This document shows, piece after piece, positions 13,105-46,100 of a DNA stretch of 64,000 nt. The stretch comes from Sphyrna mokarran (Eukaryota): assembly GCA_024679065.1 (NCBI GenBank), contig JAGIQG010000001.1, positions 117,924,001-117,988,000 of the forward strand, read 5' to 3'. A program made the position numbers and the translations under genes. The notes under the pieces are model-generated. The model did not search any database, was not told the origin of the DNA, and saw only the letters and a list, made by a program, of their open reading frames with translations. Position 1 is the stretch's first letter; the number at the start of each line of letters is the position of its first letter.

Positions 13105-13124
13105 TGTGGTGAAGTACAGTGGTT
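13105..13124 (-). promoter_or_regulatory. Candidate RNA-duplex arm (3' arm), complementary to 16231-16253
   Basis: tgtggtgaagtacagt (13105-13120) is the exact reverse complement of actgtacttcaccaca (16238-16253). Confidence 0.5.
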
Positions 13125-13415
13125 ATTGTTGCTGAACATTTAAAAGCAGGACAGACAATCCAGAGAAGTGCATTTTGCTGAAATTTGTAAACAAATCCAG
13201 CATAAAATAGATTCCACTCCTCAAGGGAAACAAAATTTGATAGCTTGAATTTAAAAGTTCAAATATGATTTGTGAGAAATCTTATTTTGTGCATATTAGG
13301 TTTTGTGAAATAAGTCACTTTAGTAGTTTCTGTAATTGTAATTTAATATAAGCTGATCACTTTATTTTTCTACGTTGAACATGGAGGAACTCTGCAGTGA
13401 CACAATCTTAAATTG

Positions 13416-13486
13416 ACTGGAATTTTCTGACCCTTCCTGTTGACAGAGAACTCGCTGTGGGTAGGGTGGGCTAGAAAATTCCAGCC
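13416..13486. repeat. Short MITE-like inverted repeat
   Basis: ctggaattttct ... agaaaattccag. Confidence 0.5.
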
Positions 13487-13719
13487 AATATGCTTTTTAT
13501 TTTAAGTACAGTGTTTACACTTACTTCATTATTCCAATACAAAAAATAAATGCCCATTGATATCCATAAAATAACACAATTCCCTTAGGTGTAGACCTAA
13601 CCTGGCACAATTTGCATACATTTAATTAATCTGCATAGGACAAAAAAAATGAACTTTGTAAAAAAGATTTTATATACTTAGCACAAGAAAATAATCTTCA
13701 TCATAAATATTCAGTTCAT

Positions 13720-13870
13720 TGATGCTGGATCAAAATCTTGGAGCTCCCTACCTAACAGTACTGTGGCACTGCTCAGTACAAATGGTGGTGGCTCACTATC
13801 ACCTTCTTAAGGCACTAGGTGCTGTCCTGACCCACATTTGATGCCCTAATCAAATGAATGAATAAAAAAA
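13720..13870 (+). repeat. LINE/SINE 3' tail fragment (same tail family as 28110-28390 and 40380-40920)
   Basis: gctggatcaaaatcttggagctccctacctaacag ... aatgaatgaataaaaaaa. Confidence 0.55.
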
Positions 13871-14161
13871 CACTCCTGTTTGTTGAAAAGTCTGTCTACA
13901 TTTTGATTGCCTTCCTTTCTCTTTTTGGGCTCTTGCTATTTATTTCCCTTCCATTTATCTCATTAGTTGAAGTAAAATTTGATTTTTATCTGCCTCCTCC
14001 TGGCTTCATCTTTGCCTACTGCTGGACTGCTTGGCATTGTCTCTTCAAAATTACTGCATTGTATAATAAATGCATTTTTGACAGTGTACTTTTACTTAAA
14101 CACTAGCTCCAACATGACCTTAAACTCCCACCTAGCTGTCTCCATGGGCCTTGCTTTAAAT

Positions 14162-14590
14162 TACAGAATCACAGAATTGTTCTGGCACAGAGGGAGACCA
14201 TTTGGCCCATCGTATGTGCACCGCGTCTTTGAATGAGCAGTCACTGAGTATCATTATCTTGCTTCTCCTGATAAACCTGCACATTCATTCTTGTTAGAGA
14301 CGGTTTAATTCGCTTTTCAATGCTTCAGTTAAATCCACCTCCACCACACTCTCAGGAAATATATTCCAGACCCTAACCACTTGCTGCATCAAAAAACTTC
14401 CTTTCGTAACAGTTGCCTTTTTTATTCACTAATTACTTTAAATCTGTGACCTCTCAGTCTTGACATTTTCATGAAATGGGAACAATTTCCTTCCTATTTA
14501 CTCTGATAGATTTCTCATGATTTTGAATGTCTTTCTTTTCTCCAAGGAAAACATTATAACTGAAGTTCCTTATCCTGCGAGTCATTCTCG
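14162..14590 (-). mobile_element. Old CR1 LINE 3' fragment
   Basis: The tail (acagaatcacagaattg...ccatttggcccatcg) is followed by decayed C-terminal ORF2 sequence in antisense. Confidence 0.65.
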
Positions 14591-16230
14591 TTAATATTTT
14601 TTGGATGATGTTAAGATATTTTACCCCATCCCTTGCTTAATGACTATGCTTGAAATGACCCCATCCATAGCAGTCTGTTCGGAGTGGGTGGGGATGGCGG
14701 GGGGAGTTCTGTCAGAGGATCAATCCTTTTGTCGGGGTAATGCCTATGGAAAGAAGTTGAGGTTGGGAGCGACCCCATGAGGTTGGAGAGGACTCTGGTG
14801 ATTTGACGATGTTTATGTGTGTGTGCGCGTATGTGGGGTGGGGTGCATCCCATGAAGTCAATGTGAACTGCCTAATAGTTACCCAGAAGTGGTTTCAATC
14901 TTTCAAACATTTTCTGAGTAACTATTCACATCACATTTGGAACCATTCTGCTCCTGTTTTCTCTATTTTTCACCATGGTCTCCTGTAATCATTGCATTAG
15001 TTGATACTCTGACAAGCCCTTGCTCAGTGCAGTAGCCATGGGGTTAACTCAAAAGCTGTGAGCATAAACACCGATTCAGGCAAAAAATCTCGTGAAAGTC
15101 AGGAAACGAGATCCTTGCCAGTAGTGTCCAATTTTCCCCGCCCTTCTCTGCTGACGTAGTGAAATTCCCAGTATTTGTGGGCGGGAACCACATTTAAAAA
15201 CATTTTAATTAATTTACATATTATTAAAGGGCCTGTATACCACATGATCTCCCCACATTGTGTCATATCAGTGAGGTTCACAACAGCATTATGAAAATTG
15301 GTAACAATTGAGGGGATCCTGCTGGATGCGCCAAGCTCAGTAGGGGGAGACATACCTGGGCATTGCCCTGACACTGCCCTCTGGCGCAGGTTGGTACAAG
15401 CAGTGTCACACTATGCCAGGGGGCAGTGACAGGGATATGCCATCTGGGCAGCCCAATTTGATTAGGAGGAGGAGAATGTTTCCGTAATGTGTACGAGGAA
15501 ATATTGTATATGTGTTTGTCCATTGCATCCATGAAGCACGATCAGATATTTTATATTAATGCAAGTTCTTGTTATTGAAATAGCATGAATGCATTTAGTA
15601 GTGCAGTTACCTCAAGAAATGACTTTTCTCTACATTTCCAAAAGCATACTACAGTACTAGACTGCAAAATATTAACAGTTGGTGAAAACACAGGAGATTA
15701 TTTCTCCAGGCCAAAAGTTTGCACCTAATGTACACTACCACTTTGGTATTGGAGTTACTGACTTTCCCTGACATTGGGCATTGTTTGCGACTAGAAACTG
15801 TAACTATATTTTTAAAACAATGGCATGTGTGCAATATTGAATATGACAGTTACTGCACTTCCTATTGGTATTTGCAATGTACATTGCTGTGTGGACAGGT
15901 CAGACCCTGGCTTTGGTAGCCTTGGCACATTGTGGAACAAATTGGGTAGGTATGATTCTCACATAAATACACTATTACGTTAAATGTATTACTGTTATCA
16001 TAACTTCACATACTAGCCTTCAATCAAAGCAAATGTGGAGAACTGTGTGATTGTAAAGGCATTCAAAACACGATAGCACACAGTGTGTTAAAATCTCAAA
16101 GGACAATTATATGTTTAGTATTTTGGAATGCTTCAAAACTAACCCTAGCAATATCCTTAAAGTAGAATATTTCAAAAGATGGTGTTGGGTATTGTTGCTG
16201 TTCATTTGTGTATTCAGATTTAATATGGAA

Positions 16231-16253
16231 AACCAAAACTGTACTTCACCACA
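16231..16253 (-). promoter_or_regulatory. Candidate RNA-duplex arm (5' arm), complementary to 13105-13124
   Basis: 16-nt perfect complement plus GGUU/AACC after a 3-nt bulge. Confidence 0.5.
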
Positions 16254-16639
16254 CCAGCTGAAATCCTGATATTGGAACACTTAAATATAATGCAACTAAA
16301 TGTCAAGGGAGACATGAAAGAGGCATGTCTCCTGCTCATCAAAGAGCATGAAAGAGAAATATGAAAAAAATGAAAGTATTTCACAATGAGCGCAAAAGGC
16401 ACAGCAGGACTATAAGGGATGTCAAAGGAAAATGGATGCTTAGATGATACACTGATTATTTAGTTATTAATGCTTTACTTAAGCTAAGTAAAATACTAGT
16501 ATTTTTAATGAATTAAAGAGTTGTAAACAGAATTAGTGTTATTTCTACAAGCATTAGTAACAGGTTGTTAAATTATTTTAGATTTCATACTCTAATGCTA
16601 TCTTAATACTTATATTTTATAGATAAAAAATATTCTTAC

Positions 16640-19380: not shown

Positions 19381-19806
19381 TAGAACATAGAACATAGAAC
19401 ATTACAGCACAGAACAGGCCCTTCGGCCTTCGATGTTGCGCCGACCAATATAAAAAGCAATGCCCCTCCAAACTAAACCATTCCCTTCTCTTCCATATAC
19501 TTATCAACTAACCTCTTAAACGCCACCAAACTTGTCGCATCTACAACCGCTGCAGGCAGGGCATTCCACTCCCGAACCACCCTTTGGGTAAAGAACCTGC
19601 CTCTGATATCCGTCCTATAACTATCACCCCTTAATTTAAAGCTGTGTCCCCTCGTGCTAGCTTTTTCCATCCTAGAAAAAAGGCTATCACTATCCACCCT
19701 ATCTATACCTCTAATCATCTTATATGTTTCGATTAGGTCCCCTCTTAGCCGCCTCCTTTCTAACGAATACAACCTCAAATCCCTCAGCCTCTCCTCATAA
19801 GACCTG
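19381..19806 (-). mobile_element. Young CR1 LINE, 3' fragment (copy 1)
   Basis: ORF2 C-terminus LERRRLRGDLIETYKMIRG...REWNALP, 3' hairpin and (TAGAACA)n tail on the + strand. Confidence 0.93.
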
Positions 19807-20132
19807 TTGTCTTATAATAACACTGTTGTACAGTGTTATTTGATTGGAACACATTTTGGATTTGGCAATTGTGCTCCATGCCTTCAGTAAGAAGTGCAAC
19901 TATTTTGATGGTAAGCTAATGAAACAGAGCTTTCAGTGAACAATGAGCTTGTAACTTTTCTTTGGAGAAAGGAAAAGCAGGACATGTGTGGAACCAAACC
20001 AGAAGTGTAGAGTGAAATAGAAATAAAGGGGCAAAAATGAACAGATAGAACATAGAACATCACAGCACAGAACAGACCCTTCGGCCTTCGATGTTGCGCC
20101 AACCAATTAAGAAAAAGCAATGACCCTCTAAC

Positions 20133-22977
20133 CTAAACCATTCCCTTTTCGTCCATAAACTTATCTACTAACCTCTTAAACGCCACCAAACTTGGCGCAT
20201 CTACAACTGCAGCAGGCAGGGCATCCCATACCCTTACCACCCTCTGGGTAAAGAACCTACCTCTGACATCCGTCCTATAACTACCACCCCTTAATTTAAA
20301 GCTATGTCCCCTCGTGCTAGCTTTCTCCATCCTAGGAAAAAGGCTATCACTGTCCACCCTACCTAAACCTCTAATCATCTTATATGTTTCGATTAGGTCC
20401 CCTCTTAGCCGCCTCCTTTCTAACGAAAACAACCTCAAATCCCTCAGCCTCTCTTCATAAGACCTGCCCTCCATACCAGGCAACATCATGGTAAACCTCC
20501 TCTGTACCCTCTCCAATGCCTCCACATCTTTCTTATAATGCGGGGACCAGAACTGTACACAATACTCCAAGTGCAGCCGCACTAGAGTTTTGTACAGTTG
20601 CAACATGACGTTGTGGCTCCGAAATTCAATCCACCTACCAATAAAAGCTAAGACTCCGTATGCCTTCTTAACAATCTTATCGACTTGATTGCCAACTTTC
20701 AGGGATCTATTAGCATATACAACAAGATCCCTCTGTTCTTCAACACTATTAAGAATCCTACCATTAGCCCTATACTCTACACATTTGTTATTCCTGCCAA
20801 AGTGAATTACATCACACTTTTCCACATTAAACTCCATTTGCCACCTCTCGGCCCAGCTCTGCAACTTGTCCAAGTCTCTCTGCAAACTAGAACACCCCTC
20901 TTCACTATCTACCACTCCTCCGACTTTGGTGTCATTCGCAAATTTACTAATCCATCCTTCAATACCCTCATCCAGATCATTTATAAAAATTACAAACAGC
21001 AAGGGCCCCAAAACAGATCCCTGAGGTACACCACTTGTAACCGAACTCCATGATGAATAATTTCCATCAACCACCACCTTCTGTCTTCTATCAGCTAGCC
21101 GATTCCTCATCCAATTAGCTAAATCACCCTCAATCCCATGCATCTGCATTTTCTGCAGAAGCCTTCCATGGGGCACCTTATCGAACACCTTACTAAAGTA
21201 TATACCACATCAACTGCCTTACCCCCCATCAACCTCTTTGGTCACTTTTTCAAAAAACTCAATAAGGTTAGTAAGGCACGACCTACCCTTCACAAAACCA
21301 TGCTGACTATCCCCAATCAATTCATTTCTCTCTAACTATAAATCCTATCCCTAATAATTCTTTCCAATACTTTGCCCACAACAGAAGTAAGACTCACCGG
21401 TCTATAATTCCCAGGAAAGTCTCTATCCCCCTTCTTGAACAATGGGACCACATTCGCTATCCTCCAGTCTTCCGGCACTATACCCGTAACCAACGACGAC
21501 CTGAAGATCAGAGCCAGAGGCTCTGGCAATCGCCTCTCTCACCTCCCAGAGAATCCTAGGGTAAATCCCGTCCGGCCCAGGGGACTTATCTAACTTCAAA
21601 CCCTCAAGAATATCTAGCACATCCTCCTTATCTACTTCAATACTTTCCAGTTTGCAGCCCTGTATCCCAGTGTTCTCCACAACTACATTTACATCTCCCT
21701 GCGTGAATACCGAAGAGAAATATTTGTTCAGTGCCTCTCAATCTCTTCAGGCTCCACGCACAACTTCCCACTACTGTCTATGACTGGCCCTAATCTTGCC
21801 CTAACCAATCTTCTATTCTTAACATATCTAAAGAAAGCTTTAGGATTCTCCTTGATCCTATCAGCCAAAGTCTTCTTGTGTCCCCTTTTAGCTCTCCTCA
21901 ACTCGCTCTTTAGCTCACTCCTGGCTAATCTATAGCTATCCATTGCACTAACTGAGCCTTCAAGCCTCATCCTGACATAAGCCTCCTTTTTCCTTTTAAC
22001 CAGCGAATTAACTTTTTAGTACACCATGGTTCCCTTACTCGACCATTTCCTCCTTGCCTGACAGGGACATACTTATTAAGGACTCGCAGTAGCTGCTCCT
22101 TGAATAAGCTCCACATTTCAGATGTTCCCAGTCCCTGTAGTTTCCTAGTCCAACCTATGCCCCCTAATTCCCTCCTTATGGCCTCATAATTACCATTCCC
22201 CCAGCTAGAACTACTGCCCCCAGCTTCATGCCTATCCCTATCCATCACTAAGGTGAACATAACCGAATTGTGTTCACTATCACCAAAATGTTCACCAACT
22301 TCCAAGCCTAACACCTGGTCTGGCTCATTGCCCAGCACCAAATCCAATGTAGCCTCACCTCTATTTGGCCTATCTACATACTGAGTCAAAAAATCTTCCT
22401 GCACACTCTGTACGAAAACTGACCCCTCTAACGAGCTAGAGCTATAGCTATTCCAATCAATATTAGCAAAGTTACAGTCCCCCATCACAATTACCCTACT
22501 ACTTTCACTCCTAATCAGAATTGACTTCGCAATCCTTTCCTCAACCTCTCTAGAACTATTAGGAGGTCTGTAAAAGACTCCCAACAGGGTGCCCTCTCCT
22601 CTCCTGTTTCTAATCTCAGCCCATACTACCTCAACAGACAAGTCCTCATCAAACTTCTTTTCTATCACCGTGATACAGTCTTTGACCAATAACGCCACTC
22701 CTCCCCCCCTTCTTCCTCCTTCTCTACTCCGACTAAAGCATTTGTACCCCGGAACCTGCAACATCCATTCCTGTCCCTGCTCTACCCAAGTCTCTGAAAT
22801 GGCCACAACATCGAAGTTCCAGGTACTGGTCCAAGCTGCAAGTTCCTCCACCTTATTGAGAATACTTCTTGCATTAAAGTATACGCATTTCAAACCATGC
22901 CCTACTCCACCCGTACGCTGCTGTGCTTTCCAGTTCTCATCTATGACCTCCCTATTCTCGTCCCTCTTAACATCCAA
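20133..22977 (-). pseudogene. CR1 ORF2 (AP endonuclease + reverse transcriptase), disrupted
   Basis: YFNARS, AISETW, GVFYRPP, MGDCN, SEH (endonuclease); NYRPVSLT, GVPQGSVLGP (RT). The catalytic FADD motif is changed to FAND and the frame is broken into several pieces. Confidence 0.92.
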
Positions 22978-43199: not shown

Positions 43200-46100
43200 A
43201 GGGATAGGTTCAGTTGCTCCAAGCTTTCTAACTAATACCTGCACATGTTAGTGGATATGGGATCCAGAAAAGGAGAACAGTCCTGTGCTCTATGGCACTG
43301 TAATGCCCTTGCAGCAACCATTATGGCCTGGGTTCAAATAGTGGTTGTGGTGAGCACAGCAGTAAACCATCAACGCTCATGGATTCAATGCAGATAAAGA
43401 TTCAATGACCTGCTGCATTGCAGTAAAGTGATTGGCTGGGCTCACCCACAAAGAACTGCTAGGAAAGTATCATATCTACATGCTGTAGATAAGATTTGAG
43501 ATATGGTATTTAGTTCTGCTTCAGCAATGAGGCTTCTCTGTGCATGCAGCTCACAAAGGTATGTGTAGAACATTTGCATGAGTACTGAGATGCACAAATG
43601 CAGTGAAGAGTAATATAACTCCATGCACTATATCTCTGGCTAATATAAACCCATTTTGTTTTTGCAGTGGAAAAGTTTGAAGAATGCAATGGAGATGGCC
43701 CAAACTGAGGGTCGGTTGCTGGCTGAGATCCATCAGCCTCATGACAGCCCATGTACCTGAACAGCTATGAATGACATGCCAGTCAGGACTGCTGTCTGTG
43801 CAGAGATTCAAAACCACAGTTTGAATGAAGCCCCTAACGTGTTTGAACGGTGAGGCAGGGCGCCCACACCTCATGTTGCTTAGGGAGAGAAGTGAGTAGT
43901 CTTCCTCCATCTCCACCACGGAAACAGGGGAACATTTTGTAGGAGTGTACAAGAGCCAAAGGCACCTTCTCGCCCAGAGAAAAAATAGATTAATCGTGGT
44001 TATGCTATTCACACTGTATATGGCACACTTGAGAACTTCGTGAATATAATTACTTATATATGTATATGACTCAGTGTATGTTTGTTCAATTCAAAAAGAA
44101 TGGTAACATTCTGAAGGCTGCTTTTACCAGTAATAATGTGGGTCGCCTGCTGAGGCCTATCTCGACATGCCTTCAACAGACACTGGGCAAGAGGGACATG
44201 TCAAATTGAACATCATGGATACAAGATGTTCATCTTCACTGCTTTGTTATACATTTACCTAGGTGTACACATCATAGCTCAAGACATGTACCGTGCAAGC
44301 AATATTGCTTATCTGTTGCACTCACTGTTTTGGCTGCATTTGCATCCAAGTTCGGAGTTTGGTTACAAGTGGTGTTTTGGGGTCTGTTTTGGGGCCCCTG
44401 CTGTTTGTAATTTTTATAAATGATCTGGATGAGAGTATTGAAGGATGGATTAGTAAATTTGCGGATGACACTAAGGTCGGTGGAGTGGTAGATAGTGAAG
44501 AGGGGTGTTATAGTTTGCAGAGAGACTTGGACAAGTTGCAGAGCTGGGCCGAGAGGTGGCAAATGGAGTTTAATGTGGAAAAGTGTGAGGTAATGCACTT
44601 TGGCAGGAACAATAAATGTGTAGAGTATAGGGCTAATGGTAGGGCTCTTAATAGTGTTGAGGAACAGAAGGATCTTGGTGTATGTGTCAATAGATCCCTG
44701 AAAGTAGGCAGTCAAGTGGATAAAGTTGTTAAGAAGGCATATGGAGTCTTAGCTTTTATTGGTAGGGGGATTGAATTTAGGAGCCGCAGCATCATGTTGC
44801 AACTGTACAAAACTCTAGTGCGGCCGCACTTGGAGTATTGTGTGCAGTCCTGGTCCCCACATTATAAGAAAGATGTGGAGGCATTGGAGAGGGTACAGAG
44901 GAGGTTTACCAGGATGTTGCCTGGTATGGAGGGCAGGTCCTATGAAGAGAGGTTGAAGGATTTGAGGTTGTTTTCGTTAGAAAGGAGGCGGCTAAGAGGG
45001 GATCTTATTGAAGCATATAAGATGATTAGAGGTTTAGATAGGGTGGACAGTGATAGCCTTTTTCCTAGGATGGAGAAAGCTAGCACGAGGGGACACAGCT
45101 TTAAATTAAGGGGTGATAGTTATAGGACGGATATCAGAGGTAGGTTCTTTACCCAGAGGGTGGTTAGGGAGTGGAATGCCCTGCCTGCGGCAGTTGTAGA
45201 TGCGCCAAGTTTGGTGGCGTTTAAGAGGTTAGTTGATAAGTTTATGGAAGAGAAGGGAATGGTTTAGTTTGGAGGGTCATTGCTTTTTTCATAATTGGTC
45301 GGCGCAACATCGAAGGCCGAAGGGCCTGTTCTGCGCTGTAATGTTCTATCTTCTATGTTCTAAGTGTCACAGCTTGTACATTGTGCAATAACCAGAGGTG
45401 TGTGGATATTAGGAATGTTCACTTGGCATCTACTTCAGAAACTAGACTATTGGCTGAAATGGATGGTGCACAAGTTCTTTCTAAGAACTGTTGTTACACA
45501 GTTCTGTGTTCCTCATGCACAATATATCTTATCCATATGAAAGGTTTATATGCTGAACCAATCACCATGTATTGGATTTGAATTCTGACATGATATCACT
45601 TTCTGCATTTTGGGCATGGTATAATTATACAGTTTGATGGCATGGACTTCTCATTTACAGTCATTGGAGTTCATGAGGGGGCCAGGTTTAAATGACATTA
45701 TCATGTGCTTTTGCAATAGATAATAGTGAAGGCTTCAGCCATGTGAACATGGTTGAGTCCAACTCATTAATGTTTATTATCTCCCTTTGGGAGATGTGAA
45801 GTCCCTTGAGTAATTGTGGAGCCAACATACAATGTTCTTCACAGAGAATGAATTTGCATTGCTATGCAGCAGGAAGCACACCATTATTGTACCTGATACC
45901 CTTGTTGGAACACATTGTAGAGCTCTACCTGAGCAATTGAAGCATCTTGAGCACATCTTTAAAATGCTAATTGCCTGCTCGATTATACTTGTGGTGACAA
46001 CATGGCTTCTTTTGTACTTGCGCTCTGTTTGTAGGCTCATTATCCAAGTTCATAAAGGTTAGCTCTGGTTTCTGAGAAGCCATTCACGAATCTACATTGG

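Follow-up and report, generated by a model that had tools for sequence, protein, structure and literature searches.

Giant ankyrin-B is specific to neurons, and its exon carries most of the autism ANK2 mutations, according to PMC10025425. The locus analysed here raises the question of how such an exon is joined to its upstream neighbour, and whether two complementary stretches in the preceding intron take part. The window is a stretch of 64,000 nt from the shark Sphyrna mokarran. An earlier sequence-only reading of it had proposed that pairing of the two stretches delivers RBFOX sites as a bridge and acts as a structural switch between 440- and 220-kDa ankyrin-B.

The minus strand of the window carries ANK2. 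For an exon further upstream, the best match among solved structures is to ankyrin-2 chains (E 4e-46; ankyrin-3 gives 1e-38). The start of a 2,054-codon open frame on this strand is 86% identical to catshark ankyrin-2b, and other sharks, rays and chimaera rank next. The coordinates of the 22-nt exon and the giant exon agree with annotated shark ANK2 isoforms, and thus the gene identity and exon layout proposed earlier stand. The exons concerned are as follows.

25986-25954, minus strand: 33-nt ANK2 exon (ESDSDQEQEEE), from annotated isoforms.
16661-16640, minus strand: 22-nt ANK2 exon (VTGIQDK plus 1 nt), whose donor opens the 4,509-nt intron; splice sites in the sequence, 7/7 identity to catshark isoform P0002.
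12130-6296, minus strand: giant ANK2 cassette exon, 5,835 nt, frame-preserving, 36% A; annotated isoforms, open frame 86% identical to catshark ankyrin-2b.
754-674, minus strand: next exon after the giant exon (start of the death-domain region), with the competing acceptor; sequence, junction peptide in shark proteins.

The 22-nt microexon shifts the frame if skipped, and it is therefore probably constitutive. Of the 120 proteins listed, no shark or ray isoform shows a further exon within the 4,509-nt intron. Between the microexon donor and the competing acceptor of the 754-674 exon lie 15.9 kb. The acceptor of the giant exon is weak and rich in A, and the AG-free zone of about 106 nt before it (12131-12236, minus strand) suggests a distant branch point. 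Alternative acceptors at 12296 and 12236 were rejected, since counting along the sequence puts them out of frame. A T/A-rich 19-nt stretch (12180-12162, minus strand) resembles one in ANK3, located 138-156 nt ahead of the giant acceptor there (E 0.006, low complexity). The 33-nt exon is apparently constitutive in mouse according to PMC12713133; in catshark, sawfish and turtles, some isoforms are annotated without it (P0002, P0009, P0072 and P0096).

The 4,509-nt intron contains an inverted pair that is perfect over 16 bp (13105-13120 with 16238-16253), with the arms 3,117 nt apart. Four further base pairs follow beyond a 3-nt bulge. The energy of the duplex is -29.1 kcal/mol, and that of the 16-bp core alone is -26.4 kcal/mol. 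The inverted-repeat search reproduced all the coordinates of the sequence-only reading for this pair, and the motif scan confirmed the positions of its five UCAU motifs before the 5' arm and two UGCAUG motifs past the 3' arm. The elements of the intron are listed in the order of transcription.

16314-16389, minus strand: five YCAY motifs (putatively NOVA-type), 251-326 nt past the microexon donor; motif scan.
16231-16253, minus strand: 5' arm (16-nt core 16253-16238, 3-nt bulge, 4 nt); inverted-repeat search, unchanged in 3/3 covering relatives.
13125-16230, minus strand: spacer of about 3.1 kb to be looped out, repeat-rich and near-neutral; multicopy depth spikes, about 7.5% divergence in the 15.4-16.45 kb pieces.
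13105-13124, minus strand: 3' arm, overlapping a four-YCAY cluster; inverted-repeat search, motif scan.
13044-13049, minus strand: UGCAUG no. 1 (RBFOX-type); motif scan.
13013-13018, minus strand: UGCAUG no. 2; motif scan.

The distance from the microexon to the 5' arm is 387 nt, and that from the giant exon to the 3' arm is 975 nt. The five UCAU motifs (16389, 16373, 16364, 16351 and 16317, minus strand) have a summed cluster score of 6 by the rules taken from PMC2014790. Four YCAY motifs (13122, 13112, 13109 and 13101, minus strand) lie over the 3' arm, three of them within the paired arm, and by the same rules this cluster scores 12, joint-top of the intron. The two UGCAUG motifs, located 56 and 87 nt from the 3' arm, are the only ones in the whole intron according to the motif scan. 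A shorter motif of the 3' arm, UUCACCAY, is present again at about 12947 and about 12925 (minus strand). Partial copies of the 3' arm are found at 13504-13517 (14-nt, 93% direct repeat) and 12919-12947 (the two UUCACCAY motifs) on the minus strand, and these are possible weaker alternative partners of the 5' arm.

The 16-mer occurs exactly five times in 2.77 Gb, and two of the occurrences are the ANK2 arms; the reversed control occurs twice, and 1.4 occurrences are expected. The flanks of the other three are unrelated. The 251- and 281-nt contexts of the arms match themselves alone in the genome, a search result that is no proof of rarity. The bins over both arms are at single-copy depth in 4/4 relative runs. 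Over the central part of the intron, repeat contigs accumulate in their thousands, with multicopy depth spikes at 13652-13885, 14120-14587, 14822-14938 and 15056-15406. According to the five genome matches with unrelated flanks and the single-copy contexts and depth, a repeat or transposon origin of the arms was rejected. The earlier view that the arms are not transposon-like thus survived the check for a high-copy fragment, which came out negative.

The pair might still be a non-functional relic, either an old short inverted duplication made by a template switch or a decayed mobile element. A 22-nt, 86% direct repeat adjoins both arms (13120-13141 and 16186-16207), and the spacer is crowded with repeat fragments, as such an origin would have it. 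However, the copy at 16186-16207 has indels in 3/3 relatives and the 5' arm has none, and the rare 16-mer with its unrelated flanks, each arm context giving one match, also argues against this origin, which we regard as very unlikely. The direct repeat was also rejected as a constrained element because of the same indels. Elsewhere in the window, near-identical repeat copies in opposite orientation are present at 19400-21050 and 44270-45350. They lie in different ANK2 introns, separated by about 24 kb, and share perfect runs of up to 78 nt. These copies could form long double-stranded RNA across several exons.

The chance expectation was evaluated in several ways. A perfect pair of at least 16 bp was observed at a frequency of 0.005-0.007 in resampled introns (3 x 3000), and an equally stable compact duplex at 0.023 in dinucleotide shuffles (23/1017). 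In the surrounding 484 kb, where the repeat mask was a rough self-comparison, three unmasked pairs of at least 16 bp within 150-4,500 nt were counted, the ANK2 pair included, corresponding to 0.012-0.018 per intron-sized set. The rough value of 0.002 previously given for a 16-mer complement in the intron was too low by 3-10 times according to the resampling, the shuffles and the 484-kb count. For loose 35-nt duplexes with bulges allowed, the energy is not significant, since -29.1 kcal/mol is attained in 38% of 251 shuffles. What sets the pair apart is that the helix is perfect; its energy does not. Within the ANK2 intron, the pair is moderately more than chance would give (0.5-2%); it is real, single-copy and modestly improbable.

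At the rate of the 484-kb count, about 0.3-0.4 such pairs are expected per 64-kb window, and therefore a scan of the genome meets many chance pairs. The complementarity might accordingly be fortuitous: the 3' arm would be conserved as part of a protein-binding block, with its YCAY cluster by the UGCAUG sites, and the 5' arm would be a chance match that has not mutated. The 3'-arm YCAY cluster would explain the conservation of that arm without pairing, and its top score and the recurrence of UUCACCAY are in line with this, as is the loose energy null. On the other hand, an event of 1-2% must then have fallen in the ANK2 intron. The conservation of the two arms bears on the same point.

The relatives comprised 22 runs, four of which (X16, X13, X11 and X6) were compared on 12950-16450. 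None of the 22 is listed as an RNA run. Four runs were compared on 16150-16400: three covered the region with one contig each, and X17, presumed to be RNA, gave no coverage there. The list of differences for this region is complete. The background divergence of the intron among the relatives is about 7.5%. Fourteen substituted sites and about five indel sites were detected in 16150-16400, and none of them is in 16213-16253 in 3/3 covering runs. The 5' arm is thus inside a 41-nt invariant island, with 19 change sites across the other 210 nt. The probability of no change in the 23-nt 5' arm is 0.16 at the local rate and 0.09 at the neutral rate; for the core of the arm, the values are 0.29 and 0.19. 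For the 41-nt island, which was chosen post hoc, they are 0.034 and 0.014. The values for the arm and its core, 0.09-0.29, are compatible with a chance match. All five upstream YCAY motifs remain YCAY in 3/3 relatives, one of them as UCAU>UCAC.

The other arm belongs to a longer conserved segment.

12131-13159, minus strand: conserved intronic block from the 3' arm to the giant-exon acceptor; 31-mer sharing, difference table.

The relatives (best 15 of 22 runs, the possible source run set aside) keep 0.41-0.54 of the 31-mers of 12130-13250, which corresponds to about 97-98% identity; 0.09 is expected at 7.5% divergence. Among the differences listed (40 of 415; four runs), two are in 12950-13159 and 22 are in 13160-13412, and none changes the 3' arm or the UGCAUG sites. 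The divergence of the block is at most 3.3% (X11) and 4.8% (X16), even with every unlisted difference placed there. The 3' arm is located 35 nt inside the upstream edge of this block of about 1 kb. The arms thus sit at the inner edges of less divergent flanks, one in the conserved block and the other in the invariant island, and bracket the repeat-rich spacer. This arrangement argues against a fortuitous match.

No two-sided compensatory change was seen in the close-relative data (about 7.5% diverged), because there is no listed variation in the core; the lack of covariation is a further point on the side of chance. In a 7-bp extension of the helix, a one-sided change (C-G to U.G) was observed between the relatives and the shark genome. 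The conservation is suggestive but shallow. The sequence-only reading had named conservation or covariation of both arms as a check; an unchanged 5' arm (3/3) and a 3' arm within a conserved block were observed, and covariation was not found in these close relatives.

In the ANK3 paralogue (G000:C738:49764185-49765889), the 1,704-nt intron before the giant exon contains no counterpart pair and no UGCAUG. Its longest perfect pair is an unrelated 13-mer, about 340 nt apart. An 11-nt match to the 3' arm was rejected there (E 3.3, out of order). For distant orthologues in metagenome contigs, 597 pattern matches were obtained and none was confirmed. On all these points taken together, chance complementarity is quite possible, although we lean against it. 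Chance and relic jointly fall somewhat short of an even chance, and a selected RNA duplex of some kind is the rather more probable case.

The folding of the arms was predicted with their flanks of 270-280 nt. The co-folding gave a pair probability of 0.96-1.0 for 14 of the 16 core pairs, the entropy of the 3-kb loop being outside the model. The predicted costs of opening are about 9 kcal/mol for the 5' arm and about 2 kcal/mol for the 3' arm, and the latter is mostly accessible alone. The duplex of -29 to -35 kcal/mol is predicted to outlast these costs, and the arm duplex to beat the local folds. Among 494 seeded long-range duplexes in the real intron, the arm pair is the best-scoring one. 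Two nearby structures were also predicted.

16211-16217 with 13132-13138, minus strand: possible 7-bp extension helix, U.G here and C-G in the relatives; co-folding.
16308-16332, minus strand: local 9-bp hairpin just upstream of the 5' arm, with the fifth UCAU in its stem; -13.7 kcal/mol, z -1.8, 8/200 shuffles as stable.

The extension was rejected as added evidence, since random flanks equal it in 64% of 3000 trials. In the 16308-16332 hairpin, the changes of the relatives are confined to the loop and the terminal pair. A conserved competing hairpin over the 5' arm was rejected, as the predicted pairs are not the same in the shark genome and the relatives. An 8-bp hairpin (13057-13037, minus strand; -11.7 kcal/mol, z -1.5) is predicted to carry UGCAUG no. 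1 in its 5-nt loop. No match to an Rfam RNA family was obtained at the gathering score.

Within the spacer, a very stable 80-nt hairpin was predicted 290 nt ahead of the 3' arm (13411-13489, minus strand; -37.4 kcal/mol, z -6.9, 0/200 shuffles). The region 13410-13491 shows a sub-threshold match to an Rfam miRNA precursor (27.6 of 100 bits), and the 11-nt terminal arms of the hairpin recur at two other loci with unrelated interiors. A decayed MITE-type element is suggested; the predicted hairpin may also be an intronic pre-miRNA.

We propose, tentatively and with a little less than even confidence, that the arms pair in shark ANK2 pre-mRNA as a standing clamp, which shortens the intron and aids the joining of the microexon donor to the giant acceptor. 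With the 3.1-kb repeat-rich middle looped out by the duplex, the effective length of the 4,509-nt intron would be about 1,360 nt, close to the 1.7 kb found in the ANK3 paralogue. At 5.8 kb, definition across the exon is probably not feasible, and thus a shorter upstream intron would favour the pairing of donor and acceptor. The microexon donor could then pair with the weak giant acceptor before the competing acceptor is transcribed. The UGCAUG sites follow the microexon donor at about 3.6 kb; looping would cut this distance to about 440-470 nt and place them next to a YCAY cluster. RBFOX binding downstream of an exon activates it, and binding upstream represses it. A classical bridge would therefore act on the microexon donor. 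The neuron-specific decision would be left to proteins (RBFOX/NOVA-type activators and SAFB repression), and the duplex would be a permissive scaffold, not a switch.

A true switch can nevertheless be drawn from the overlap of the 3' arm with four YCAY motifs, by which that arm would either bind a NOVA-type protein or pair with the 5' arm, but not both. The duplex would be open in neurons and closed elsewhere, and its opening or closing would alter the context of the adjacent UGCAUG sites and the giant acceptor. Three of the four motifs are in the paired arm, no cluster of the intron scores higher than this joint-top one, and the arm is mostly accessible at a cost of about 2 kcal/mol. Across vertebrates, conserved clusters of YCAY are predictive of brain-specific splicing (PMC2014790). 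However, the cluster and the giant exon are 975 nt apart, beyond the 200-nt window of the NOVA map in that paper, and a duplex of -29 kcal/mol is hard for a protein to displace unless the protein is bound first during transcription. Our literature search found no paper joining Ank2, giant, NOVA2 and alternative exon. This mode of control is judged unlikely.

The standing clamp can be compared with known intronic structures. PCCRs (Kalmykova et al., 2021; PMC8052449) are described as complementary stretches of at least 10 nt, with a dG of -15 kcal/mol or lower, in the same gene and at most 10,000 nt apart. The ANK2 pair, with 16 perfect base pairs, -26.4 or -29.1 kcal/mol and 3,117 nt, is within these limits of length, energy and distance. 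It falls in energy group III (-25 to -30 kcal/mol), its spread is below 10 kb, and it is wholly inside one intron, an enriched configuration in the same description. Both arms of PCCRs lie in conserved intronic regions of a vertebrate-wide alignment; the catalogue covers 100 vertebrates, whereas the conservation of the ANK2 arms is seen across 3-4 close sharks. Compensatory substitutions are a supporting feature in a minority of the catalogue pairs, and the false-discovery rate is given as 10% to more than 50% (PMC8052449). The ANK2 pair is similar in length, energy and spread to the validated pairs (PMC8052449, Table 1; PMC10573301). In contrast to PHF20L1 and CASK (PMC10573301), the ANK2 duplex loops out no exon.

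For an RNA bridge, the operational definition in PMC8052449 places the RBP site within 50 nt of one arm and the exon within 50 nt of the mate arm, and the exon responds to knock-down of the RBP; our literature search gave nothing on such a response for the exons here. The UGCAUG motifs, at 56 and 87 nt, are just outside this distance, and the exons are at 387 and 975 nt. Like the ENAH RBFOX bridge and the candidate RALGAPA1 bridge (PMC8052449), the ANK2 pair is an intronic long-range stem downstream of a small exon, with UGCAUG just past the distal arm. Unlike in ENAH, 387 nt separate the small exon and the arm, and the regulated exon is downstream of UGCAUG and is brought no nearer: looped or unlooped, the sites are 883-914 nt upstream of the giant exon. 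The proposed RBFOX bridge to the giant exon is thus not supported by these distances. The ANK2 pair is probably an intron-shortening duplex of the conserved-complementary-region kind, constitutive, and we do not file it as an RBFOX bridge.

In non-neuronal cells, depletion of SAFB is by itself enough to induce the giant exons of ANK2 and ANK3 (PMC10901741), and thus the known control does not need the duplex. For this reason, tissue specificity is more simply assigned to proteins than to the duplex. SAFB repression of giant coding cassette exons concerns the same exon, which is 36% A in the shark against the 33% mark of that paper. SAFB binds along the exon, and the portions of PMC10901741 covered here name no intronic RNA structure, in contrast to the intronic duplex of ANK2. 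In our literature search, no report of an intronic structure controlling the inclusion of the giant ANK2 exon was found; the trans-acting control found was SAFB repression. ANK2 has no entry in the five supplements of PMC8052449 searched; the full human catalogue and the RIC-seq tables were outside this search and may contain an ANK2 pair. Nor has it an entry in the IRBIS and PeerJ supplements searched (PMC4174434 and PMC10691357), one IRBIS file being outside the search.

As a whole, the sequence-only reading holds for the gene, the layout, the non-repeat arms, their conserved context and the predicted duplex. It is not supported for the RBFOX bridge, and the 440/220 switch is unproven, with no covariation in the close relatives. 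Control of giant-exon splicing by the arm duplex is likewise a candidate, unproven. A still bolder form, in which a clamp present throughout the jawed vertebrates and operated by NOVA-type proteins at the 3' arm sets the ratio of 440- to 220-kDa ankyrin-B, seems to us quite improbable.

The element belongs to a well-known kind, and the data on the ANK2 pair are confined to sharks. The 16-nt arm pair makes the question of the giant exon directly testable. If a vertebrate-wide clamp were true, it would offer a cis element at an exon linked to autism that antisense agents could target, and the shortening of the upstream intron would be a general route for the recognition of giant exons.
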